Assembly (NCBI GenBank): GCA_021769035.1
Contig: JAETTP010000001.1
Location: 35,408-99,407, forward strand
Source: Bacillota bacterium
GTDB taxonomy: Bacteria > Bacillota > Dehalobacteriia > UBA4068 > UBA4997
Length of the DNA: 64,000 nucleotides
Reading direction: 5' to 3'
Part shown: positions 12,250 to 57,477 of the stretch, piece by piece
How positions within the stretch are numbered: the first letter of the stretch is position 1
How the letters are laid out: each line of letters starts with the position of its first letter
The notes under the pieces: model-generated
The model's input: the letters and a program-made list of their open reading frames with translations, nothing else
The model's database searches: none
What the model was told of the DNA's origin: nothing
Translations under genes and position numbers: made by a program

Positions 12250-14604
12250 GTGATTAAAGATTATATCGCCCCGGCTGCGGCACAACGCAAATTAAAAAGC
12301 GCCCACACGCAAAGGCAAAACGTTTATATATACGGCGCCAGCGGCTACGGCAAAACAGAGCTTGTTCAGCAATTTTTAGCCACTCGCCCGCACAAATATT
12401 TTTCCTTCAGCGATTTGGCTGGTAATATTGACAAACTGCCTGCCAGCGACGAGGATATAACCCTGGTGCTGGACCATTTGCAGCTGCTCAGCAGTGAATT
12501 ACTGCGGGAAAAAATCTTGGATTTATGCTATCATCAAAAGGTGTGGTTAATTTTAATCAGCCGCAGCGCCCTGCCCCATTGGTTGCGCCCCAGCTATGTA
12601 AACCAGGGCTTCACCATCATCCACGAGGAGGACTTGCACCTGCGCGGTGCGGAGATGGCCGCTTATCTGCAAACCCAACAGCTATCCCTTTCCGAGGCAG
12701 AGCTGATGCACCTGGAGGGAGCCACCGACGGCAACCCCTACGCGCTACGCTATGCGACCCTGCTTTTGCAGCAAGGCCACAAAATCAACCCGGAATTTTA
12801 TTCGCAAGTTTGGGACGCTTACGCCGATTATCTGGAAAAATTTGTTTTCCCCAGCTGGGACAGCAGCCTGCTGGAATTTCTTATGCAGCTAAGCGTCACC
12901 AATGATTTTGATTTGGAGCTGGCCAAAATGATTTCCGGCAACAGCCGCGCCGCCGTCCTGCTGGAACGCGCCCTGGAAACCGACAATCTGCTGCGCCAAA
13001 AGGGCGGAGTCTACCACCTTTCACCCATCGCCCAGCAAGCCCTACGCAGTCTGAGTGAAAAAAAGCTAGGCACAGAGCGAATCATCGATTATGCCTCCCA
13101 CGCCGCCCTCTATTACGAAATGCACGAGCAATTTTTGCCCGCTCTGCGGATTTTGAACCGCTGCGGCAAGACGGAGCAAATTAAAAGCCTGCTCATTCGC
13201 AACGCCCACTTAACGCCCGGCAGCGGCTACTACTTTGAAATGCGCCATTTTTACCTACGCCTGACCCCGGAAGAAATCAACGGCAACGTGGTGCTGATGG
13301 CCGGCATGAGTATGCTTTTTTCCCTGTTGCTACAGCCGGAGGAAAGCGAAATTTGGTATAAACGCCTGCGTCAGCTGGCCGCCAGCGCCGTAAACGGCCA
13401 AAAAAGGGAAGTCCTAAGCCGTCTGGCTTATCTGGATATTTGCCTGCCCCACCGCGACAGCGCTGATTTGCTGGAAATTTTTGAACGGGTGCCTACCCTA
13501 CAGGAAAAGGGCATTACTCTGCCCGAGGTTTCCCTCACCGATAACCTGCCCAGCGTACTAAACGGAGCCAAGGATTTCTGCTGGATGACCAAACAAACCC
13601 AAAATATCTTAACCTCCCACAGTCATCTGATCGAGCAGGTTCTGGGGCCAACTGCCAAAGGCCTGGTTGAAGCCACCCTGGGCGAAACTATCTATGAAAA
13701 AGGCGGCGACACCTACGAGGTGCTGCGCCTGCTGAGCCGCTCCCGCCTGGAAAGCAACCGCGACAACAGCCTGATGCTGGCTTTTGTCACCATCGGCTTG
13801 CAAATACGTCTAAATTTGCTGCATGGCGACGTGCAGGCCGCCATAGATATTTTAAAACCCTTTGAACAACAGGTGCACGAGCAAGCCGCCAGCCACTTGT
13901 TGCCCAATATCCGCGCCCTGTACTGCCGCATTGCTCTCTATACCGGTAATAAGGCGATAATCAATCGCTGGCTCACCGAAGCGCCCACTGAAAGCAAGGA
14001 CTTCAACACCCTGGAGCGTTACCGTTATTTAACCAAGGTGCGCTGCTATATCTCCTGCGGAGATTATCTGCAAGCCCAAGCCCTGCTAGAAAAACTGCGC
14101 TACTACGCCGAGGAGTACCACCGGCCTTATATTCAAATGGAGGTTGGCCTGCTTTCTGCTATCATCAAGGAGCGATTGGACGGCGATTGGCAGGAGGAGC
14201 TGCTACGAGCCCTGCGTCTGGCCAGCAATTTCGGTTTTATCCGTCTGGTTAGCGAGGAGGGCGCGGCTATCAACCCCCTGCTGCAGGCCGCCCGCAAGGA
14301 ATGTGCGGCAGACCCGGAAATTGACCAGGACTGGCTGCGCACCTTGCTTGCCGAAACCGCCGCCGTGGCGGTGCGCTACCCGGTTTATCTGAAAAAACAG
14401 CTGGCCGAGATGCCGGATTTCAGCCCCACAGCCCTCACCATTCTGCGCTTGCAGGCCGACGGTCTTTCCGTCAACAAAATTGCCGACCAGCTGGGTATGA
14501 AAGCCGTCACCGTCAAATCCCACACCCGCGAAAATTACCGCAAGCTGGGCGTGGCCGGCAACACCGACGCCGTGCTGGCTGCCCGCAACCTGGGCCTGCT
14601 TTAA
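12250..14604 (+). CDS. LAL/MalT-type large ATP-binding LuxR-family transcriptional regulator
   Basis: N-terminal P-loop YIYGASGYGKTE. C-terminal LuxR HTH LSVNKIADQLGMKAVTVKSHTRENYRKLGV. GTG start after GGAGGA. Confidence 0.8.
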   Translation: MIKDYIAPAAAQRKLKSAHTQRQNVYIYGASGYGKTELVQQFLATRPHKYFSFSDLAGNIDKLPASDEDITLVLDHLQLLSSELLREKILDLCYHQKVWLILISRSALPHWLRPSYVNQGFTIIHEEDLHLRGAEMAAYLQTQQLSLSEAELMHLEGATDGNPYALRYATLLLQQGHKINPEFYSQVWDAYADYLEKFVFPSWDSSLLEFLMQLSVTNDFDLELAKMISGNSRAAVLLERALETDNLLRQKGGVYHLSPIAQQALRSLSEKKLGTERIIDYASHAALYYEMHEQFLPALRILNRCGKTEQIKSLLIRNAHLTPGSGYYFEMRHFYLRLTPEEINGNVVLMAGMSMLFSLLLQPEESEIWYKRLRQLAASAVNGQKREVLSRLAYLDICLPHRDSADLLEIFERVPTLQEKGITLPEVSLTDNLPSVLNGAKDFCWMTKQTQNILTSHSHLIEQVLGPTAKGLVEATLGETIYEKGGDTYEVLRLLSRSRLESNRDNSLMLAFVTIGLQIRLNLLHGDVQAAIDILKPFEQQVHEQAASHLLPNIRALYCRIALYTGNKAIINRWLTEAPTESKDFNTLERYRYLTKVRCYISCGDYLQAQALLEKLRYYAEEYHRPYIQMEVGLLSAIIKERLDGDWQEELLRALRLASNFGFIRLVSEEGAAINPLLQAARKECAADPEIDQDWLRTLLAETAAVAVRYPVYLKKQLAEMPDFSPTALTILRLQADGLSVNKIADQLGMKAVTVKSHTRENYRKLGVAGNTDAVLAARNLGLL

Positions 14605-49352: not shown

Positions 49353-50468
49353 TTGGACAGCCTGTTGCTGCGTAACTTCCGCAATTATGAGGAATGTTCG
49401 CTGCAATTTCATCCCAAGCTGAATGTGATAATCGGCGATAATGCGCAGGGCAAAACCAATTTGTTGGAGGCTATCTCCTATTTGAGTTTGGGCTCCTCCT
49501 TTCGTGGCCAGCCTAATGATAAGATTAAACGTTGGGACAGTGATTTCTTCTTTTTGCGGGCCAACTACCAAAACCAGCTGGGCCCGCACAGCCTTTCTGT
49601 CGGTTTTCAAAAGCGGGAACGGATTTGGAAAAAGGACGAACAGCCTTGCAGCCGGCTCAGCGAGATTGTGGGCCAGCTGCATACTGTGGTTTTTAGCCCG
49701 GAGGATTTGAAGCTGGTGCAGAGCGGGCCGGACAAGCGGCGCGCCTTTTTGGATAGGGAAATGGTGCAGCTGCTGCGCGGCTATCATATTTATTTGAATA
49801 ATTACAAAAGGGCCTTGGTGCAGCGTAATAATTTGTTGAAGCAAATGCCGCCGGATTTGCTGTTTAGCTCCGCCGGCGACGAGCAGCTGGCAATTTGGGA
49901 GGAACAGCTGGCCATCAATGGGGCAGAGATTGTGCGGCGGCGCAGTTTTACCTTGCAGGCCCTGAATGAGATTTGTCAACAACTGCATTCGGAACTGACC
50001 GGCGGCCGGGAGCGTTTGCGCCTGGCCTATAGCTGTGCCTGGGCGGAGGCGGCCGGCTTGCCGGCGGCCAAGCTGGCTGATTTGCTGCGTCAAAGCTACG
50101 TCCAGGGCCGGCGGGAGGATAAGCAACGCCGTTTAACATTGCTGGGGCCGCACCGAGATGATTTTGCTATTTATATTAACGAGGTGGACGGCCGTACCTT
50201 TGGCAGCCAGGGGCAGCAGCGCACGGCGGCCCTAGCTTTGAAGCTTTCTGAGCTGGAATTGGTGCATAAGCTTTCCGGCTACTATCCATTGCTGTTGCTG
50301 GACGATGTTTTTTCCGAGCTGGACAGCAGCCGGCGGCAGGCTTTGCTGAGCCTGATGTTGAACAAGGCGCAGATTTTCATTACTTGCACAGAAATTGCCA
50401 GTGATTTGCGTGGGCTTAATCCGGCTGATTATCAGCTTTTTAAGGTTCAGGCCGGCAGTATAAAATAA
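49353..50468 (+). CDS. recF: DNA replication and repair protein RecF
   Basis: LLLRNFRNY, GDNAQGKTNLLEA Walker A, SMC-like signature. TTG start. Confidence 0.9.
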   Translation: MDSLLLRNFRNYEECSLQFHPKLNVIIGDNAQGKTNLLEAISYLSLGSSFRGQPNDKIKRWDSDFFFLRANYQNQLGPHSLSVGFQKRERIWKKDEQPCSRLSEIVGQLHTVVFSPEDLKLVQSGPDKRRAFLDREMVQLLRGYHIYLNNYKRALVQRNNLLKQMPPDLLFSSAGDEQLAIWEEQLAINGAEIVRRRSFTLQALNEICQQLHSELTGGRERLRLAYSCAWAEAAGLPAAKLADLLRQSYVQGRREDKQRRLTLLGPHRDDFAIYINEVDGRTFGSQGQQRTAALALKLSELELVHKLSGYYPLLLLDDVFSELDSSRRQALLSLMLNKAQIFITCTEIASDLRGLNPADYQLFKVQAGSIK

Positions 50469-50514
50469 ATTTGGGCTGAAATATAATAAATAATAAAATT
50501 AAGGTAATATTGTA

Positions 50515-51309
50515 ATGCAGAATTTGGATAAGATTAAGCAGGCGGAAATTGCCGTTTACGATTCCGGCGTGGGCGGTATCAGCTTTTTGCCCACAGCTTG
50601 CAGTTTGCTGCCGGCGGAGCGTTTCGTCTACTATGGCGATTTGGCTAACGCGCCTTACGGCGACCGCAGCCAGGCTTTTATTATTAATCGGGCCAGGGAG
50701 ATTGTGGCTTTTTTCCGCCAGCGTGGGGTTAAGGCTTTGGTGATTGCCTGCAACACGGCCACCAGCGCGGCGGCGGCCACTTTGCGGGCGGAGAACCCCG
50801 ACCTGCCGATTTTTGGCATGGAGCCGGCGGTGCATTTGGCTGTTAAGCGCGGCGAAAAGAAAATTATTATGCTGGCTACGGAGTTGACAGCCAACGGTGA
50901 AAAGCTGCGCCGGCTTTTAAGCGCGGAGGCCGGGGCGGCGGAAATTGTAACCATTGCTTGCCCCGGTTTGATGGAGTTGATTGAAACCAATTTGGTTAAG
51001 GGTGAAACGGCGGCGATTAAGGAATATTTGCAGGCTAAGCTTTTGCCGCAGGTGACGGACGGCTGCGCCGTGGTGCTTGGCTGCACGCATTATATTTTTT
51101 TGCGCGGTTTGCTGCCGCGGCTTTTTCCTGGTTTGCGCCTTTACGACGGCAATTTTGGCACAGCGCAAAATTTGCGCCATCGTTTGGCGCAGGCCGGCTT
51201 GCTGTGCCCGGAGGAGGGGCAGGCTATGGTTGGGGAAATTCCCTGCTTTGGTTTGCCGCCGGAAAAGTTTGCCGCTTATCTGAAGCTGGCCAGTTCATTG
51301 GAATATTAA
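50515..51309 (+). CDS. murI: glutamate racemase
   Basis: YDSGVGGIS, VIACNTAT, LGCTHY motifs. Confidence 0.9.
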   Translation: MQNLDKIKQAEIAVYDSGVGGISFLPTACSLLPAERFVYYGDLANAPYGDRSQAFIINRAREIVAFFRQRGVKALVIACNTATSAAAATLRAENPDLPIFGMEPAVHLAVKRGEKKIIMLATELTANGEKLRRLLSAEAGAAEIVTIACPGLMELIETNLVKGETAAIKEYLQAKLLPQVTDGCAVVLGCTHYIFLRGLLPRLFPGLRLYDGNFGTAQNLRHRLAQAGLLCPEEGQAMVGEIPCFGLPPEKFAAYLKLASSLEY

Positions 51310-51315
51310 GCTAAT

Positions 51316-51347
51316 AAAGCCCTCGGAGCGTGTACTCTGAGGGCTTT
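51316..51347. terminator. bidirectional terminator at island boundary
   Basis: aaagccctcggagcgtgtactctgagggcttt. Confidence 0.55.
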
Positions 51348-51359
51348 AATTAAAGATTA

Positions 51360-51686
51360 TTATTTATTTTTTCTTTTCTTGATAATTTTTTCCAGAAAAT
51401 ATTCTGAATATTGGTTGGGATTGTTAATAATCTCGTATGCTGCGATTGCAACCTGAATCCCGTACAAAGCGGCGGTTGTGGTTTTGGCTGAAACGTGGTC
51501 ATTAAAGTTGCGACGAAGTTCCTCTATAGTTTCATTTGAAACTTCTTTTCTCAAGCTGTTTAAGATACTAATAATGTTATCTTGCGTTAAATTAATTACG
51601 GGATTGTTGATTTCAAGTTTTAACCATTCATTCGTTTCCATAATGCTGTTTACTAGGTTAAAGCAAAATTTTGGATTTGTAAGCAT
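51360..51686 (-). CDS. hypothetical 108-aa protein, AT-rich codons, helical; possible HEPN-like Rx4H (RNFNDH)
   Basis: Start at MLTNPK with AGGAGG RBS 8 nt upstream. The ORF-track N-terminal extension MPNPKIRGV... is antisense to the sRNA promoter and is rejected. Confidence 0.5.
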   Translation of the reverse strand: MLTNPKFCFNLVNSIMETNEWLKLEINNPVINLTQDNIISILNSLRKEVSNETIEELRRNFNDHVSAKTTTAALYGIQVAIAAYEIINNPNQYSEYFLEKIIKKRKNK

Positions 51687-51755
51687 AAAAAAACCTCCTA
51701 AAATTTCGTTTGTAAAAGTCTTGCCAAAACAGGAGGTATATGCTATAATATTTAC

Positions 51756-51823
51756 ACCTCTTATTTTGGGGTTGGGCACTCACATTTGCTTTTGTGGGCG
51801 TGGTGGGTGTCCTTTTTTTATTT
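51756..51823 (+). ncRNA. sRNA X1 (promoter-to-terminator unit), convergent with RHH1
   Basis: TTGCCA(51721)-17-TATAAT(51744). Hairpin gggcactcac...gtgggtgtcc plus U9. No ORF. Confidence 0.4.
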
Positions 51824-51991
51824 GCTGAGTTCTTCGTCTACTTTTTCGTTTAACCAATCAGCTTTGGTTCTACCTTGAATTCTAAGTTTTGCTTCTAATG
51901 CTTCAACTTTTTCTCTTTTAAGCATTACGTTAAACTGTTTCATAGTTTTGCGTCTTTCACGAAAATACTCAGCTCTACTTTTTACGGCCAA
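51818..51991 (-). CDS. ribbon-helix-helix (CopG/ParD-like) small DNA-binding protein RHH1
   Basis: TTG start with AAAGGAGG RBS 7 nt upstream. ...KQFNVMLKREKVEALEAKLRIQGRTKADWLNEKV has beta-strand then two helices. Own minus-strand promoter TTGACA-17-TATAAT (52048-52019). Not in ORF track. Confidence 0.5.
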   Translation of the reverse strand: MAVKSRAEYFRERRKTMKQFNVMLKREKVEALEAKLRIQGRTKADWLNEKVDEELSK

Positions 51992-52148
51992 ATCGTCGCC
52001 TCCTTTGGTTGCCTGCTACAATTATATCAAGTTGCAGGCTACTTGTCAATAGGTTTTTGAAAAATTTAGATTGTAAGCATAAAAAACATCCTAAATTTTC
52101 GTTTGTAAAAGTCTTGCCAAAACAGGAGGTATATGCTATAATATTTAC

Positions 52149-52216
52149 ACCTCTTATTTTGGGGTTGGGCACTCACGTTTGCTTTTGCGGGCTTGGTGGG
52201 TGTCCTTTTTTATTTT
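52149..52216 (+). ncRNA. sRNA X2 (near-identical duplicate of X1), convergent with RHH2
   Basis: TTGCCA(52114)-17-TATAAT(52137). Same hairpin plus U-run overlapping the RHH2 stop codon. Confidence 0.4.
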
Positions 52217-52380
52217 TTTAACCTGTTATAGACCTCTTTAATACCTTGGCGAATGATTTCAGATTTTGTCAATCCAGTTTCTTGGACACAAAATTCAAGA
52301 CGTTTTATATCTTCTTCTGATAATCTAATTCGCGTATTTAATATTTTAGGGTCATTGGTTGGACGTCCTTTTGGGGACAA
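52210..52380 (-). CDS. ribbon-helix-helix (CopG/MobC-like) small protein RHH2
   Basis: TTG start after AAAGGAGGTG. (M)SPKGRPTNDPKILNTRIRLSEEDIKRLEFCVQETGLTKSEIIRQGI. Promoter TTGACA-17-TATAAT (52457-52428) overlapped by palindrome GTATCCACA-N14-TGTGGATAC. Confidence 0.6.
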   Translation of the reverse strand: MSPKGRPTNDPKILNTRIRLSEEDIKRLEFCVQETGLTKSEIIRQGIKEVYNRLKK

Positions 52381-52523
52381 GTTTTCACCTCCTTTTAGTA
52401 TCCACAATTATTATATGATATGTGGATACATTTGTCAAGAGGTTTTTGAAAAGTTTAGATTGTAAGCATAAAAAAACCTCCTAAAGTATTGAAATAACCC
52501 TCGGAAGCTGGTATAATAGATTT

Positions 52524-52599
52524 ACCGACCTCTAAAGGTTGTGTGTAATAACAGTATTGCTTGGCTTGTTTAGGGTGTTGCAATACTGTTATTTTTTTT
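52524..52599 (+). ncRNA. sRNA X3, convergent with RHH3
   Basis: TTGAAA(52489)-17-TGgTATAAT(52512). 11-bp stem aacagtattgc/gcaatactgtt plus U8. RHH3 stop lies in the stem. Confidence 0.4.
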
Positions 52600-52762
52600 G
52601 GCTCAAAAGTAAACTTATTCCTTGCCTAATTGCTTCGCCTTTAGTTATATTATTTTCTAAACTGTAAGCTTGCAATTTTTCTTCAGTTTCTAAATCTAGT
52701 CGAATACTGTACCGAATTGTTTTTGGATTATCTACTTTTGGACGACCAGTGCGTGGACTCAA
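52589..52762 (-). CDS. ribbon-helix-helix (CopG/MobC-like) small protein RHH3
   Basis: TTG start after AGGTGA. (M)SPRTGRPKVDNPKTIRYSIRLDLETEEKLQAYSLENNITKGEAIRQGI, paralogous to RHH2. Promoter TTGACT-17-TATAAT (52820-52790). Confidence 0.6.
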   Translation of the reverse strand: MSPRTGRPKVDNPKTIRYSIRLDLETEEKLQAYSLENNITKGEAIRQGISLLLSQKK

Positions 52763-52877
52763 ATCATCACCTACTTTCTGCCACACCATAATTATATAAA
52801 AAGCGTGACAAAAAGTCAATAGTTTTTTTGAAAAAATTCAGATTGACAAAAACAATTTAAAATGCTATAATAATAAA

Positions 52878-52963
52878 AAAGGCACCGTAAGTAAGCGGTT
52901 AGCCTCATCGTTTTGGTGTTATTTTTTAACAACCGTCACTACTGACACTAGTGGCGGTTTTTG
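52878..52963 (+). ncRNA. antisense sRNA X4, putative antitoxin of peptide D2
   Basis: TTGACA(52843)-17-TATAAT(52866). Terminator ccgtcact...agtggcgg plus U5. Overlaps last codons of convergent peptide. Confidence 0.45.
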
Positions 52964-53031
52964 CTATGTCTAAACTTAATCTCAATCGAAATTTTAAAAA
53001 TTCCAATATGAAATATCAGCTTTATTGGCAT
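52948..53031 (-). CDS. 27-aa amphipathic basic-tailed peptide (MPIKLIFHIGIFKISIEIKFRHSKNRH), putative type I toxin D2
   Basis: AAGGAGGTG SD 7 nt before ATG. Anti-SD atcctcc-aaaa-ggaggtg hairpin. Minus-strand promoter TTGACA(53238-53233)-17-TATAAT(53215-53210). ~170-nt 5' UTR carrying the CGCTAAGTG hairpin motif. Confidence 0.5.
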   Translation of the reverse strand: MPIKLIFHIGIFKISIEIKFRHSKNRH

Positions 53032-53308
53032 AGGCCTCACCTCCTTTTGGAGGATATTGACTAACCGTTAAGTGAGCACTTAGCGACTGCCAAGGCCGCA
53101 GGCCGCAGACAGAGCTTAGTGCGAACAAATACCGCAGGTGCAAATAGAATTGTCTGAAAACAAAACTTTGCTCCTGCGGTGCCTACCGTTTGTTACGATG
53201 CCTGTTTAAATTATACAAATTATTGTTCTTATTGTCAAGCTGCGCATAAGTTTTTGCTAACCTAATTTTGCGATTGACAAAAGCGATTTGAAATGCTATA
53301 ATAAAAGC

Positions 53309-53403
53309 ACAAAGAGCCGACTCCTTAAACCGGGTCAGCCATCAGAATTTAACAATTACATAAGTAATAGCCGTTTTTCTTGGTCAGGGCGGCTATTTTT
53401 TTT
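53309..53403 (+). ncRNA. antisense sRNA, family 1, orphan copy D (toxin decayed)
   Basis: TTGACA(53274)-17-TATAAT(53297). Body aagcacaaagagccgactccttaaaccgggtcagcc. Terminator aatagccg...cggctat-U9. Opposite strand 53404-53440 keeps only the 3' half of the toxin ORF (…LVLITFADLILTHCKKK*) with no start. Confidence 0.45.
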
Positions 53404-53508
53404 GCAATGGGTTAATATTAAATCGGCAAACGTTATAAGAACTAATAAAACCGCTACTAAATAGCCCTTAGTAGCGGTTTAGTATTATTTTTTTTGAATG
53501 TCAATATC

Positions 53509-54552
53509 TTAAAAAAGCCAGGCGCGAGCATAGGGCTGCCAATGCCATTCATTCAACAGAGAATCCAAATAGGGGCTGGTGGCGGCTGGCGCAGGATTTG
53601 GGGCTGCCATATTTTGATTAGGCATGGCCATTCTGGAAGCCACCGGCGCATTAACAATTTCGGAAATGGCAGGTGCAGCCGGGGCTACTGGAGCCATTGG
53701 AGCAGTAGCGGCGACGGTTTCTGCTGCTACAGTTGAATTAGCCGGTTGTAGGCTTTGTAATGCCTGTTGAAGGGTTTCGGTGTTCTGCCCGGTTAAAGTG
53801 GACAATATATTCATAATTTGCGGATTGTTGCTGACGTTTTTCAGCATTTGCAGCATTTGCGGATTTTCCTGCAATTCAGCCAGGCTGGTGGGCAAGTGTT
53901 GGTTGCCCAAGCCGGCAAAACCGGCCAGGCTGCTTAAACCGCCCAAGCCGCCTAAACCACCTAAGCCGGGGAAACCGCCTAAACCGCCAAGCCCACCCAA
54001 GCCAGGCAGGCCGCCCAAACCGGGCAGGCCGTTGGCTAAATTGCCCAGGCTGCCTAAATTGCCGCTGGCCAGGCTGCTTAAAAGTTGCAGGGGATTGGTA
54101 TTGGGCTTGCTTAGCAGACTGTTCATCATTTTGGCAAAGGGATTGTTGCTTTGATTAGCCTCTGCTTTAGGCTGAGCTTCCTTTTTTTTCTCATCAGTGA
54201 CTTTATCGCTAACTTCATCACTAACTTCAATAGGGGTGGTTTCAATGATGATGGTAGCCATTTCCGATTCTGTTGGCGTGGTCGATTCAGAAATTGGCTC
54301 TTCATTTGTGGAATTGTTGTTTGCTGGGGTTTCTGCGCTTGCTTCAACCTCAACTGTGGCCTCAGCCTCAGTTTCTGCCTCGGCATTGACTTCAATTTCC
54401 GCTTCAGCGGCTTCTATTGCTTCTTCGGAATCACCAGTTTCAGCCGCTTCTGTTTTGCTGTCTTTCACTTCCAGCTCGCTTAAATGTTGGGCCAGCTGTT
54501 CAAGCGCCTGGCTGGTTTCATACAAACGACTGATTAAATCAGTGTTGCTCAT
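53509..54552 (-). CDS. acidic low-complexity protein with EA/ET-rich N-domain and GLGG-repeat core
   Basis: AAAGAGGTG RBS. Preceded by terminator of upstream gene. Repeats LGGLPGLGGLGGLGGFPGLGGLGGLGGL. Confidence 0.6.
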   Translation of the reverse strand: MSNTDLISRLYETSQALEQLAQHLSELEVKDSKTEAAETGDSEEAIEAAEAEIEVNAEAETEAEATVEVEASAETPANNNSTNEEPISESTTPTESEMATIIIETTPIEVSDEVSDKVTDEKKKEAQPKAEANQSNNPFAKMMNSLLSKPNTNPLQLLSSLASGNLGSLGNLANGLPGLGGLPGLGGLGGLGGFPGLGGLGGLGGLSSLAGFAGLGNQHLPTSLAELQENPQMLQMLKNVSNNPQIMNILSTLTGQNTETLQQALQSLQPANSTVAAETVAATAPMAPVAPAAPAISEIVNAPVASRMAMPNQNMAAPNPAPAATSPYLDSLLNEWHWQPYARAWLF

Positions 54553-54613
54553 TTCTTCACCTCTTTCTTTAATAAAAGGCCGGTCTTAAGGATAAGGCCG
54601 GCCTTAGCGGGAT

Positions 54614-54958
54614 TTAGTTGTTGTTGCAGCCGCAACCGCAGTTCCAGTTGCAAACAAGGCCCAGGATGCTTTGCAGAATGGTCAGAGTAACCACAATGTT
54701 CACCCAATCGCCAATGAAGTTGTAGGCAGCGTTGCCCAGGTTGGAACCATAGTTGTTGCCGCAGCCACAACCGCATCCACAGCCGTTCCAGTTTCCGCAG
54801 CTGTTGCAGCCATTGTTGCAACCGCAGGAATTACAGCCGCAGGTGTTGCAACCGCAGGTGCTGTTCCCACAGGTCATTGGGGTGTTGTAGGTTACGGTTG
54901 GCATTGTGCCGCAGGAATTACAACCGCAGCTGTTGCCATAGATGGAATTTAAGAGCAT
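54614..54958 (-). CDS. Cys-rich protein with CGCNSCG repeats
   Basis: AAGGAGGT RBS. ~30% Cys/Gly/Asn in C-G-C-N-x-C-G units. Hydrophobic C-terminal segment. Confidence 0.55.
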   Translation of the reverse strand: MLLNSIYGNSCGCNSCGTMPTVTYNTPMTCGNSTCGCNTCGCNSCGCNNGCNSCGNWNGCGCGCGCGNNYGSNLGNAAYNFIGDWVNIVVTLTILQSILGLVCNWNCGCGCNNN

Positions 54959-55044
54959 TTTGTTGACCTCCTTTTAATTTTGATATTTATATTTATGAAT
55001 TAACAGGGCTGGTGGTGCAAACTATTTATCAGCCCTGGTTGTTG

Positions 55045-56112: not shown

Positions 56113-57477
56113 ATGGAGCAAATAACAGCTGCCGATTTGGCAAAGCTGCATTGGTTTGCAGTGCCGGACGGCTTTTTGCTTTTGGACATAAACAGCGGCT
56201 CCGTGCTGCGTATTGACGAAGCCACCGCCGCTTGCTTGGACAAGCTACAAAACGGCGAGGCTGTGGCCGAGGGCAGCGCCGAGGCGGAAATTTTGGCGGA
56301 GCTGGCCCAGCTGCGGGCTGACGGCCTGCTTTTTACAGAGGACGCCTACCAGGATAAATATCAGCCGCCGGCGCCGGTGTTGAAATCCCTGTGCTTGAAC
56401 GTTTCCCACGACTGCGATTTGCGCTGTCGCTACTGTTTTGCTTCCACCGGCAGCTTTGGCGGCAAACGGGCCCGCATGAGTTTTGAGGTGGGCGCGGCGG
56501 CTCTGGATTATCTGCTGGAACATTCCGGCAGCCGTAAATTTTTGGAAGTGGATTTTTTTGGCGGCGAACCGCTTTTGAATATCGACGTGGTAAAACGGCT
56601 GGTGGCTTACGGCCGGAAGCGGGAAAAGTATTTTGGCAAAACCCTGCGCTTCACCTTTACCACCAACTGCGTGGGCCTGACCCCGGAAATTTCCGCTTGG
56701 GCAGAGGAAAATAATATCAGCGTGGTTTTAAGCCACGACGGCCGGCCGGAAATGCACGACCGGCAGCGGGTTTTTCCAAATGGCAAGGGCAGCTATGAAA
56801 TTGTAACGGAGCGGATTAAGCAGTTTTTGGCCCAAAACAGCCGGGGCAACGCCATTGTGCGCGGCACCTATACGGCTTTTAATAAGGATTTTACAGAGGA
56901 TATTAAGCATTGGCTGGATTTGGGCTTTCCTCGGCTTTCTATGGAGCCGGCGGTGGAGCTGCCGGACGGCCCCGGCAGTGAGCGCTGCCTGCGGGAGGAG
57001 GATTTGCCGGCCCTGCGGCAGGAATATTGGCGCTTGGCCGATTTGTTCCAGCAGCGGCGCGAGGAGGGCCGGCCCTTTGAATTTTTCCATTTTAAACTGG
57101 ATTTGCGGCATGGCCCCTGCCTGCCTAAGCGGCTGACCGGCTGCGGTGCGGGCTATGAATATCTGGTGGTGACGCCGGAGGGGGATTTTTACCCTTGTCA
57201 TCAGTTTGTCGGCCGGGAGGGCTTCCGTCTGGGCAGCCTCAGCGAGGGTATCACCGAGGCCGGACGAGAGCTTGGCGAGCAATTCCGCCAGGCCCACGTT
57301 TACAACAAGCCCAAATGTCGGGCCTGTTGGGCGCGCTTTTTCTGTAGCGGCGGCTGCCACGCCAACGCGGAGCTTTTTCATCACGATATTTTGCAGCCTT
57401 ATGAATTGGGTTGTTCAATCAGTCAAATGCGCCTGGAGTGTGCGATTTGGCTGGCTGTTAAGGAGGTTGAAGCATGA
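56113..57477 (+). CDS. radical SAM/SPASM-domain SCIFF maturase (thioether-forming)
   Basis: CDLRCRYC radical SAM cluster motif. C-terminal SPASM Cys clusters (CGAG...CHQF...CRAC...CSGGCHA). Confidence 0.85.
   Translation: MEQITAADLAKLHWFAVPDGFLLLDINSGSVLRIDEATAACLDKLQNGEAVAEGSAEAEILAELAQLRADGLLFTEDAYQDKYQPPAPVLKSLCLNVSHDCDLRCRYCFASTGSFGGKRARMSFEVGAAALDYLLEHSGSRKFLEVDFFGGEPLLNIDVVKRLVAYGRKREKYFGKTLRFTFTTNCVGLTPEISAWAEENNISVVLSHDGRPEMHDRQRVFPNGKGSYEIVTERIKQFLAQNSRGNAIVRGTYTAFNKDFTEDIKHWLDLGFPRLSMEPAVELPDGPGSERCLREEDLPALRQEYWRLADLFQQRREEGRPFEFFHFKLDLRHGPCLPKRLTGCGAGYEYLVVTPEGDFYPCHQFVGREGFRLGSLSEGITEAGRELGEQFRQAHVYNKPKCRACWARFFCSGGCHANAELFHHDILQPYELGCSISQMRLECAIWLAVKEVEA

Follow-up and report, generated by a model that had tools for sequence, protein, structure and literature searches.

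A probable array of three phage-type immunity I-like cassettes, each pairing a ribbon-helix-helix gene with a predicted antisense RNA, beside the replication origin of a Bacillota bacterium

What kind of system is formed by a compact, AT-rich run of very small genes and strong promoters lodged among core genes next to a bacterial replication origin? The question is raised by a 64,000-nucleotide (nt) stretch of a Bacillota genome (GenBank assembly GCA_021769035.1, contig JAETTP010000001.1, positions 35,408 to 99,407 of the forward strand), hereafter called the window. Here dnaA, dnaN, an S4-domain gene, recF and murI form the near side of an island in which the guanine-plus-cytosine (GC) content falls from about 0.57 to 0.30-0.37 directly past the murI terminator hairpin and stays low until about position 53500. 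Within positions 51350-52830 the minus strand presents the same order three times, namely a near-consensus promoter, a gene of 56-57 codons with a TTG start, a long hairpin that lacks a U-run on the minus strand, and the sequence AGGAGG-U7-ATG-CTT-ACA-A. The whole window holds 23 promoters that match the consensus at 11 or more of 12 positions, and nine of them lie within 51721-53302. An earlier sequence-only reading of this DNA had reported the GC drop, which holds, and had given the island the limits 51350-52830. These limits fit the three modules, but the AT-rich island itself extends to about 53500, and the added part carries a fourth minus-strand promoter, at 53238 (12/12), together with two further units of small-RNA-like appearance whose promoters lie at 52843 and 53274. 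The island is a real, non-random and conserved feature.

Our answer is that the island is probably a chromosomal array of three cassettes resembling the immunity I (immI) regions of phages, of the type that guards antirepressor genes in phages of the Firmicutes. Each cassette comprises a gene for a ribbon-helix-helix (RHH) protein with its own promoter and a convergent unit, X1 to X3, that is predicted to specify a small antisense RNA. The components, together with the murI border, are as follows.

50515-51309, plus strand: murI, with a hairpin terminator at 51315-51348
51360-51686, minus strand: the 108-amino-acid (aa) gene, an open reading frame (ORF) behind AGGAGG-U7-ATG that follows the last cassette (RHH1/X1)
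51721-51819, plus strand: X1 unit, with promoter TTGCCA-17-TATAAT at 51721-51749, a predicted transcript at about 51756-51819, two hairpins and U7
51818-51991, minus strand: RHH1 gene, 57 aa, TTG start after a Shine-Dalgarno (SD) sequence
52008-52049, minus strand: RHH1 promoter, TTGACA-17-TATAAT, 12/12, starting at 52049
52114-52212, plus strand: X2 unit, a 95% identical duplicate of X1, with its promoter starting at 52114
52210-52380, minus strand: RHH2 gene, 56 aa, TTG start after an SD, Pfam RHH_1
52398-52438, minus strand: RHH2 promoter, TTGACA-17-TATAAT, 12/12, starting at 52438
52489-52600, plus strand: X3 unit, with promoter TTGAAA-17-TATAAT and a predicted transcript at about 52524-52600
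52589-52762, minus strand: RHH3 gene, 57 aa, TTG start after an SD
52791-52819, minus strand: RHH3 promoter, TTGACT-17-TATAAT, 11/12, starting at 52819

The three minus-strand RHH genes with TTG starts and SD sequences, each behind a TTGAC(A/T)-17-TATAAT promoter of its own, had been proposed in the sequence-only reading and were all recovered. RHH2 passes the Pfam threshold for RHH_1 (PF01402, the CopG family) with 23.9 bits against a cut-off of 20.5, RHH3 gives sub-cut-off scores for RHH_3 and RHH_1, and RHH1 has no RHH_1 match and shows weak similarity to RepB-RCR_reg, a family of plasmid RepB regulators; weak DUF6290 and BrnA matches also occur among these proteins. In exact-match look-ups neither RHH1 nor RHH3 was on record as a called gene. 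Every RHH promoter has its own repeats bracketing the -10 box. In the RHH1 promoter an inverted repeat at 52008-52019 and 52031-52042 (GTTGCCTGCTAC/GTTGCAGGCTAC) forms a candidate operator, in the RHH2 promoter the repeat is a perfect 9-bp inverted one (GTATCCACA/TGTGGATAC), and in the RHH promoter of Streptococcus phage Javan197 TTTGTGGCACA is present twice at the -10 box. The 5' untranslated region of the RHH3 mRNA closely resembles its Javan197 counterpart. Repeats placed in this manner have the appearance expected of operators of autoregulating RHH proteins and, since each promoter has its own, distinct specificities are suggested.

The relatives of these genes indicate to what the cassettes belong. 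RHH3-type relatives were found in more than 503 confirmed IMG/VR loci, with up to 75% identity, as well as in Streptococcus Javan prophages and 130-kb phage-plasmids of C. difficile, while RHH1-type relatives occur in eight viral loci with up to 84% identity and the same architecture. In annotated records the genes appear as "hypothetical protein (RHH) - BRO family protein" or "hypothetical - hypothetical - putative antirepressor", and RHH3-like genes are labelled CopG on some plasmids. We analysed 112 RHH modules from related loci. The RHH gene lies directly upstream of the putatively controlled gene, and in the same orientation, in 100+ related modules. The next ORF begins 105-135 nt past the RHH stop with a good SD ahead of it and takes one of two forms. 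In some modules it encodes a 190-340 aa protein outright; in others a large protein of this kind is preceded by a small helical one of 56-91 aa, and these small proteins belong to many unrelated families. The domains in 46 distinct large downstream proteins were Bro-N (25), ANT/KilAC (13), AntA (5), ORF6N/C (5), pRha (4) and P22_AR_N (2). Because antirepressor-type proteins predominate downstream, the cassette is best read as a control region of phage antirepressor genes. The data indicate that the module is widespread in Firmicutes phages and unannotated in the records and libraries checked; no description of a Gram-positive module was found in the searched literature, the coverage of which was incomplete, so that novelty is not thereby proven.

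The CopG labels bring up another origin, in which the island would be an integrated and duplicated remnant of rolling-circle plasmid copy control. In pMV158/pLS1 the RHH autorepressor CopG is cotranscribed with repB, and the countertranscript RNA II arises from the region between the two genes. The island has a matching layout, with a putative RHH autorepressor and a short predicted countertranscript ending in a terminator hairpin, and to this may be added the CopG-family membership of RHH2 and the weak RepB-RCR_reg likeness of RHH1. However, a Pfam domain scan and the ORF list revealed no Rep gene, origin or Mob gene in the island or adjoining it, the 108-aa protein is not a Rep and hence the controlled gene is no replication initiator, the cassette is iterated, and its relatives stand overwhelmingly ahead of antirepressors in viral contigs. 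The site is moreover chromosomal, between murI and further core genes, and syntenic in several related lineages. We hold a plasmid remnant to be extremely improbable. The sequence-only reading had likened the layout to a pMV158-type control region iterated three times; the regulatory logic of that comparison survives, whereas its filing under plasmid copy control does not. Neither an integrase nor phage structural genes were found at the island site, where core genes are syntenic on both flanks. Integron-like attC cassettes were considered and dropped, there being no integrase and no core sites, and each cassette having its own promoter.

The second component of the cassette is the convergent RNA. 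The plus-strand units of the sequence-only reading, one per RHH gene with a TATAAT box, 17-bp spacing and a hairpin with U-run at the RHH stop, are all present as predicted features. Their promoters (51721, 52114 and 52489) each match 11/12 with 17-bp spacing, have TG before the -10 box (an extended -10) and point toward the RHH genes. With transcription taken to start 7 nt after the -10 box, a position that may be off by a few nt, the predicted transcripts are 64-78 nt long and consist of a short 5' hairpin, a long hairpin and a U-run, with folding z-scores of -5.4 to -5.9. The U-run corresponds, on the opposite strand, to the RHH stop with the Lys codons ahead of it, and the terminator abuts that stop. 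X1 and X2 form, with their flanks, a 136-nt duplicate of 95% identity, as had been noticed earlier; X3 is unlike them in sequence and alike in architecture.

The same unit recurs in the related loci, where an antisense promoter of at least 10/12 is present in 76 of the 112 RHH modules and the predicted start falls 50-79 nt past the RHH stop in 68 of these 76. All 51 distinct predicted antisense RNAs fold into exactly two hairpins, with a median of 18 pairs in the 3' one. Behind this 3' hairpin, the antisense strand carries a mean of 5.4 U per 8 nt (five or more U in 40/51), as against a mean of 0.47 U on the sense strand (0/51). A U-run restricted to the antisense side implies that the hairpin terminates the antisense RNA and not the RHH mRNA. 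RNAalifold on a MAFFT alignment of the antisense RNAs gave no structure because the register slips in the alignment. A covariance model was therefore built with the long stem specified by hand and scanned against 424 kb; it gave 33 matches, all 33 at the expected position and strand, and in the window it matched X1 at 51754-51822 and X3 at 52521-52598. In the alignment to this model all 12 modelled long-stem pairs show two-sided compensatory changes, with 92 compensatory cells observed against 28.7 +/- 5.8 in shuffles (0/500 shuffles reached 92), although these pair counts are somewhat inflated because the alignment was fitted to the model. The covariation score was 0.72, compared with 0.09-0.19 when the partners were slid. 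Stem cells contained 40 G-U against 5 A-C pairs, an excess that speaks for folding of the antisense strand.

It could still be held that there are no functional small RNAs here, the hairpins being plain terminators or DNA repeats and the plus-strand promoters a by-product of AT-richness. The region is indeed AT-rich, and shuffled sequence is expected to contain 7.2 weak promoter-like hexamers per 2.4 kb. Chance of this kind would hardly give matches of 11-12/12 with 17-bp spacing that keep a constant distance to the RHH stop across dozens of divergent loci, nor account for the antisense-sided U-run, the G-U bias, the covarying stem and a spacer, described below, whose logic depends on the antisense target. 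This explanation is, in our estimate, very improbable. Promoter position, terminator orientation, covariation and G-U bias together strongly predict a convergent small antisense RNA from the intercistronic region. Rfam contains no family matching X1-X3 at E values up to 1 across positions 50000-55000, and none reached the gathering score in 20 related loci; weak His_leader and RsaD matches sit elsewhere in 50000-55000, far under their thresholds. We propose an RNA family, the RHH-associated antisense RNA of Firmicutes phages, whose members have two hairpins, a covarying long stem and an antisense position directly past the RHH stop, all of which were found here. The apical loop of the long antisense hairpin often holds CUUUGGUCGG and elsewhere its approximate complement CCGCCAAGA (loci L028, L029, L033, L038, L049, L072, L075, L097 and L099); a motif that occurs on either strand in different loci may be a determinant of kissing-loop formation or protein binding.

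How might such an RNA act on the gene downstream? The predicted start of X1, at about 51756, is some 57 nt upstream of the SD, and X falls short of the downstream ribosome-binding site (RBS). The same holds for the related loci, in which the distances given above for antisense start and next ORF leave the RBS uncovered. The antisense promoter sits between the antisense target and the SD, and three short mRNA elements of module 1 are arranged around it.

51753-51760, minus strand: element 1, an SD mimic, GAGGUGUA in the mRNA, partly covered by the X1 5' end
51731-51737, minus strand: element 2, an anti-SD, ACCUCCU in the mRNA, inside the X1 promoter spacer
51694-51699, minus strand: element 3, the SD AGGAGG of the 108-aa gene

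In the minimum-free-energy fold of the free module-1 mRNA, GAGGUGUA pairs with the spacer UAUACCUC. Masking of the X1 target lets ACCUCCU (51731-51737) pair with the real SD, AGGAGGU, and encloses the AUG as well. The energy needed to open the RBS, taken as positions -15 to +2, was computed for the free mRNA and with the antisense target masked in 40 distinct modules. Masking raised the mean from 5.2 to 11.7 kcal/mol, a mean difference (ddG) of +6.5, and ddG exceeded 1 kcal/mol in 39 of the 40 modules, while controls with shuffled spacers gave a mean of -0.05. In the masked state the SD was paired in 33 of 35 modules. In loci L015 and L018, from a related species described below, GAGGUAUA and UGUACCUC replace GAGGUGUA and UAUACCUC of the window, and the pairing is kept through two one-sided changes.

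The favoured mechanism would then run as follows. A strong sigma-A promoter, its -10 box bracketed by cassette-specific repeats, would drive the RHH gene, and the protein of about 57 aa presumably binds the repeats and represses its own promoter. The cis-antisense X RNA, some 65-75 nt long, would be made convergently, with its terminator at the RHH stop, and a spacer of about 55 nt separates it from the RBS of the next gene. Lacking its own terminator, the RHH transcript would read through into that gene. In the free mRNA, the SD-like element within the X-complementary region would hold the anti-SD of the spacer and leave the real SD open; X paired to its target would free the anti-SD, which would close the SD and the start codon. 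We infer that downstream translation would occur only when transcription from the RHH promoter outruns X. Interference between the convergent promoters may add to this control, as may, in the window, a U7 past the SD hairpin acting as an attenuator.

These additions could instead be the principal mode of action, the cassette being the same and the antisense RNA or its convergent promoter acting mainly on transcription through interference, polymerase collision or attenuation, as in pT181, pIP501 and pAMbeta1. Near-consensus sense and antisense promoters do face each other some 300 bp apart and, in the window, L015 and L018, U7 stands directly between the anti-SD:SD hairpin and the ATG in a terminator-like manner. 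Against this, a U-run after the SD hairpin is present in only 2-3 of 35 modules and so is not general, whereas pairing of the SD in the masked state and a positive ddG are near universal, and intrinsic terminators usually have shorter loops than the window hairpin. We regard action mainly at the level of transcription as rather unlikely, and return to the translational switch as the preferred account.

Such a cassette has its closest known parallel, by analogy of layout, in the immI region (arc-sar-ant) of Salmonella phage P22, of which it would be a Gram-positive counterpart; the island, which the sequence-only reading could not assign to any described system, thus acquires a specific analogue. 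In P22, ant is controlled by two RHH repressors, Mnt and Arc, together with the antisense RNA sar, the whole forming the self-contained "ant moron" of P22-like phages; arc, a small gene that shares an operon with the controlled gene directly downstream, is negatively autoregulated, and sar, an antisense RNA of about 68 nt made convergently between the two genes, limits how much of the downstream protein is produced (PMC2629481, PMC12197685). The island and its relatives share with this system an RHH repressor gene immediately upstream of the controlled gene in one putative operon, a convergent antisense RNA, here predicted, that would arise between the two genes and measure about 70 nt, more than one RHH repressor per locus and, in most phage relatives, antirepressor cargo that includes P22_AR_N and ANT. 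They differ in the mode of contact. Whereas sar reportedly covers the ant RBS directly, as Liao et al. in 1987 and Schaefer & McClure in 1997, both cited in PMC2629481, are said to have described, X ends about 50-70 nt before the start codon, shows no complementarity to the RBS and is predicted to act by the anti-SD relay. In sequence, too, membership is lacking: X lies outside Rfam sar and the RHH proteins have no Pfam match to the Arc family, their matches being RHH_1, RHH_3 and DUF6290. The hosts are moreover Firmicutes, the cassettes are in tandem with stubs of an effector start, and the window locus lies outside any prophage and has no antirepressor gene.

Other control systems are more distant. 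The c4 RNA of phages P1 and P7 is an antisense repressor of an antirepressor operon (PMC12197685). That system differs in having no RHH protein, and no sequence similarity to it was found. In P1 the icd leader ORF overlaps the ant start, with translation of the two coupled, and c4, a processing product of the same transcript, targets the icd RBS; the cassettes resemble this arrangement in that a small helical ORF (56-108 aa) often lies between cassette and antirepressor, and in metagenomic locus L025 a homolog of the 108-aa gene overlaps the Bro-N start. In ColIb-P9 (Inc RNA), pIP501 (CopR/RNA III) and pT181, binding of a countertranscript at a distance refolds the mRNA so that the RBS is closed or a terminator formed, and a protein repressor cooperates with a convergent antisense promoter. 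The molecules, replicons and controlled genes are different from ours, and the analogy is one of mechanism only. A 2025 review of phage small RNAs gives only the P22 and P1 cases for antirepressor control and leaves Gram-positives unmentioned (PMC12197685).

The gene that would be gated in the window is the 108-aa gene, which lies 132 nt downstream of RHH1 in the same orientation. It had been described as an orphan, and this description failed, since a full profile search recovered 139 cluster representatives of about 100-115 aa sharing the motif W..I...DP.I...A(A/I)LYG(I/M).VA....P; word-indexed searches had given close relatives only. The family has no Pfam, PHROG, NCBIfam or PADLOC match, comparison of the protein with PDB by sequence was uninformative, and member P0044 gave no tblastn match in phage and plasmid records. 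An AlphaFold2 model of the protein (pLDDT 87.6) is all-helical, with five helices in a bundle or hairpin, and has no informative structural neighbour in the fold libraries. In the distant metagenomic locus L025, two RHH cassettes precede the 108-aa homolog and the Bro-N gene overlapping it. Elsewhere, the homolog is divergent from an HTH_26 repressor on an element with Rep3 and AAA_25 genes (L026), or is the first gene of an early operon in viral contigs (L109 and L110). Judged by these sequence relatives, the protein is a member of an unnamed phage and mobile-element family. Its position makes the role of a small protein-binding regulator, antirepressor-like or in an "icd-like" place, the most likely one, though our confidence in this is low. 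At L025 1400-1800 there are also a SocA_Panacea gene and two small hydrophobic ORFs (e.g. MSKKKRRKRKPTARPKWMEVVATDILAGTISGLITAAILKLLNW) facing convergent promoters, which look type I toxin-like.

Given such a protein behind an RHH gene, the sequence-only reading had entertained a toxin-antitoxin system of type II or hybrid kind, in which the RHH proteins would be antitoxins, the 108-aa protein the toxin and the small RNAs an extra safety. RHH proteins are commonly antitoxins, the weak DUF6290 and BrnA matches and the two-gene operon layout are compatible with this, type I-like units stand next door, and repressor-Bro pairs have been counted among toxin-antitoxin-like modules (Makarova et al. 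2009, PMC2701414). No toxin or defence family matches the 108-aa protein, however, in Pfam, NCBIfam, PADLOC, PDB sequences or fold libraries, and its family also occurs without any RHH gene. The intergenic gap of about 130 nt holding its own promoter is atypical, and three different RHH proteins for one "toxin" are not what such systems show. Since the same cassette stands ahead of many unrelated families of antirepressors and small proteins, the RHH protein is hardly the cognate binding partner of all of them. X1-X3, finally, oppose the spacer between RHH gene and effector and not a hydrophobic peptide ORF, unlike the RNAs of type I systems. The idea of an RHH antitoxin with an antisense RNA gating a toxin thus found no support, and we consider it quite improbable.

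Under the favoured account as an antirepressor-type immunity array, why are there three cassettes for one gene? Only the last, RHH1/X1, would gate an intact gene, that of the 108-aa helical protein, and the other two lead into stubs.

52066-52095, minus strand: stub after RHH2, degenerate, AGGATG-T6-ATG CTT ACA ATC TAA
52455-52484, minus strand: stub after RHH3, ttaggaggtttttttATG CTT ACA ATC TAA

Both stubs are of four codons (MLTI*), and the same sequence past RHH1 opens the 108-aa ORF, exactly as the sequence-only reading had it. Its further claim of one common sequence after every module stands for RHH1 and RHH3, as ttaggaggtttttttATGcttacaat with at most one mismatch occurs only at 51676-51701 and 52459-52484, and does not stand for RHH2, where the copy is degenerate, with AGGATG and one T fewer. 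The predicted switch differs among them too: ddG is +8.0 in module 1, +4.9 at the module 3 stub, where the switch is kept, and +0.3 at the module 2 stub, where it is lost, a pattern that fits the stubs as relics. The upstream cassettes would end in four-codon relics of the 108-aa start, which remained as recombination within the conserved segment of X promoter and RBS piled up the cassettes. The DNA just upstream of the RHH -35 boxes (AATCTAAATTTTTCAAAAACCT; 52043-52075 and 52432-52464) resembles codons 4-11 of the 108-aa gene (AAATCCAAAATTTTGCTTTAACCT; 51650-51686), and this likeness could be the homology behind stacking by recombination.

Stacking of this sort is not confined to the window. 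Tandem RHH cassettes were found in 22 of 87 loci, with periods mostly of 309-389 nt, and they include successions of an RHH1-type and an RHH2/3-type cassette; in viral contigs L115 and L116 (2501-2900) an RHH1-type cassette is directly followed by an RHH2/3-type one, the mix of types being as in the window. In phage contig L035 and in L025 the upstream cassette ends in a stub that joins the effector's RBS and opening codons to the next -35 box. The strain contig L014 has a stub, an RHH2 cassette, the intact 108-aa gene and murI, and lacks the RHH1 cassette. A scan of the genome collection with the 108-aa alignment gave no match. When the collection was scanned with MurI, the nearest representative was a Peptococcaceae metagenome-assembled genome with an 87% identical MurI, whose corresponding site (L015) holds one RHH3-type cassette and, behind it, a homolog of the 108-aa gene with 50% identity; other strains of its species (L018 and L121) have a single RHH1-type cassette instead. 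Cassettes compared between the two species through L015 and L018 are 93-94% identical on a flanking backbone of 80-81%, the RHH3 cassette being 93.9% identical in L015 against a backbone of about 81%. Cassette number and type therefore vary between strains at a fixed, syntenic, non-prophage chromosomal site, which bears on whether the island is mobile or strain-specific, a comparison suggested at the outset. The 108-aa protein recurs, identical or nearly so, on many short-read contigs. Nearly all short-read contigs with the 108-aa gene or a homolog (L001-L013 and L016-L023) stop 40-90 nt before the ATG, within the repeated X-promoter segment, so that short-read assemblies systematically hide the cassette array.

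Several points weigh against reading the island as an antirepressor-type immunity array, in addition to the inflation of the pair counts already mentioned. All promoters, transcription starts and RNA ends are sequence predictions. As X misses the downstream RBS, the proposed repression is derived from the thermodynamics of segments folded in isolation. The putatively gated gene has no antirepressor domain, no Bro-N, ANT, AntA or pRha domain being found in the 108-aa protein with Pfam; members of its family stand without RHH cassettes in L026, L109 and L110 and are present in 0 of 80 RHH3-type viral loci, so that the link between family and cassette rests on this lineage and L025. IMG/VR gave no exact match to the X1-type and RHH2-operator patterns, and hence no cognate phage for these cassettes was identified. 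The high conservation of the cassettes could, lastly, reflect dense overlapping constraints and not exchange between genomes.

Beyond the three modules the island contains two further units.

52843-53238: X4 unit, a plus-strand small RNA opposed to a minus-strand leader and 27-aa ORF, with the X4 promoter at 52843-52871 (12/12) and its terminator at 52931-52959
53274-53480, plus strand: X5 unit, with a 12/12 promoter and terminator hairpins at 53366-53397 and 53448-53480

The X4 RNA would overlap the 3' end of a minus-strand transcript (promoter 53238-53210, 12/12) in which a leader of some 170 nt and an SD enclosed by a hairpin precede the 27-aa ORF MPIKLIFHIGIFKISIEIKFRHSKNRH at 52948-53031. 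The layout is like that of a type I toxin-antitoxin pair with 3' overlap, and the peptide alternates hydrophobic and polar residues and does not resemble a transmembrane helix. The pattern is conserved in the L015 ortholog, in comparison with which the window leader (53030-53203) has about 115 nt extra relative to L015 11890-11950; it has no Rfam match. Over about 76-82 nt the 5' segment of X5 is conserved in L015 and L018 (88-89% identity); no ORF or target was identified for this unit. Bordering the island is a gene (window 53509-54552, minus strand; L015 12108-13136) for a conserved protein, about 345 aa long, that contains acidic repeats and low-complexity, GLGG-rich sequence. Past this gene L015 has Cys-rich small ORFs, a SCIFF-like peptide (14147-14284) and a Cys-rich ORF of 454 aa which, from reading its sequence, we take to be a radical-SAM maturase; a 454-aa ORF of the window lies at 56113-57477.

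What the array does for its host invites a further, more speculative reading, which we put forward as possible though rather unlikely: that it is not a decaying phage fragment but a host-retained "anti-antirepressor" immunity locus of multiple specificities, the cassettes providing RHH protein and antisense RNA in trans to silence the antirepressor modules of phages, whether incoming or resident, whose operator and RNA type match, and the 108-aa protein being a small antirepressor-like effector domesticated near the origin to serve the host. If this were so, resident prophages would be shielded from cross-induction, or infecting phages biased to lysogeny, and the combination of cassettes of about 93% identity on an 80% backbone with strain differences in cassette number would reflect local phage selection.

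Control of antirepressors by a repressor together with an antisense RNA is textbook knowledge for Salmonella phage P22 and coliphage P1. What appear to be new here are a widespread class of antisense RNA with no Rfam match, the indirect closing of an RBS, and a stacked array near oriC that is without an antirepressor and varies by strain. The module offers a testable handle on the choice between lysis and lysogeny and on cross-talk among prophages in medically relevant hosts, and the cassette represents a compact, modular and stackable gate made of a repressor and an RNA. The presence of three such cassettes on a chromosome raises the question of whether hosts keep them for their own use.

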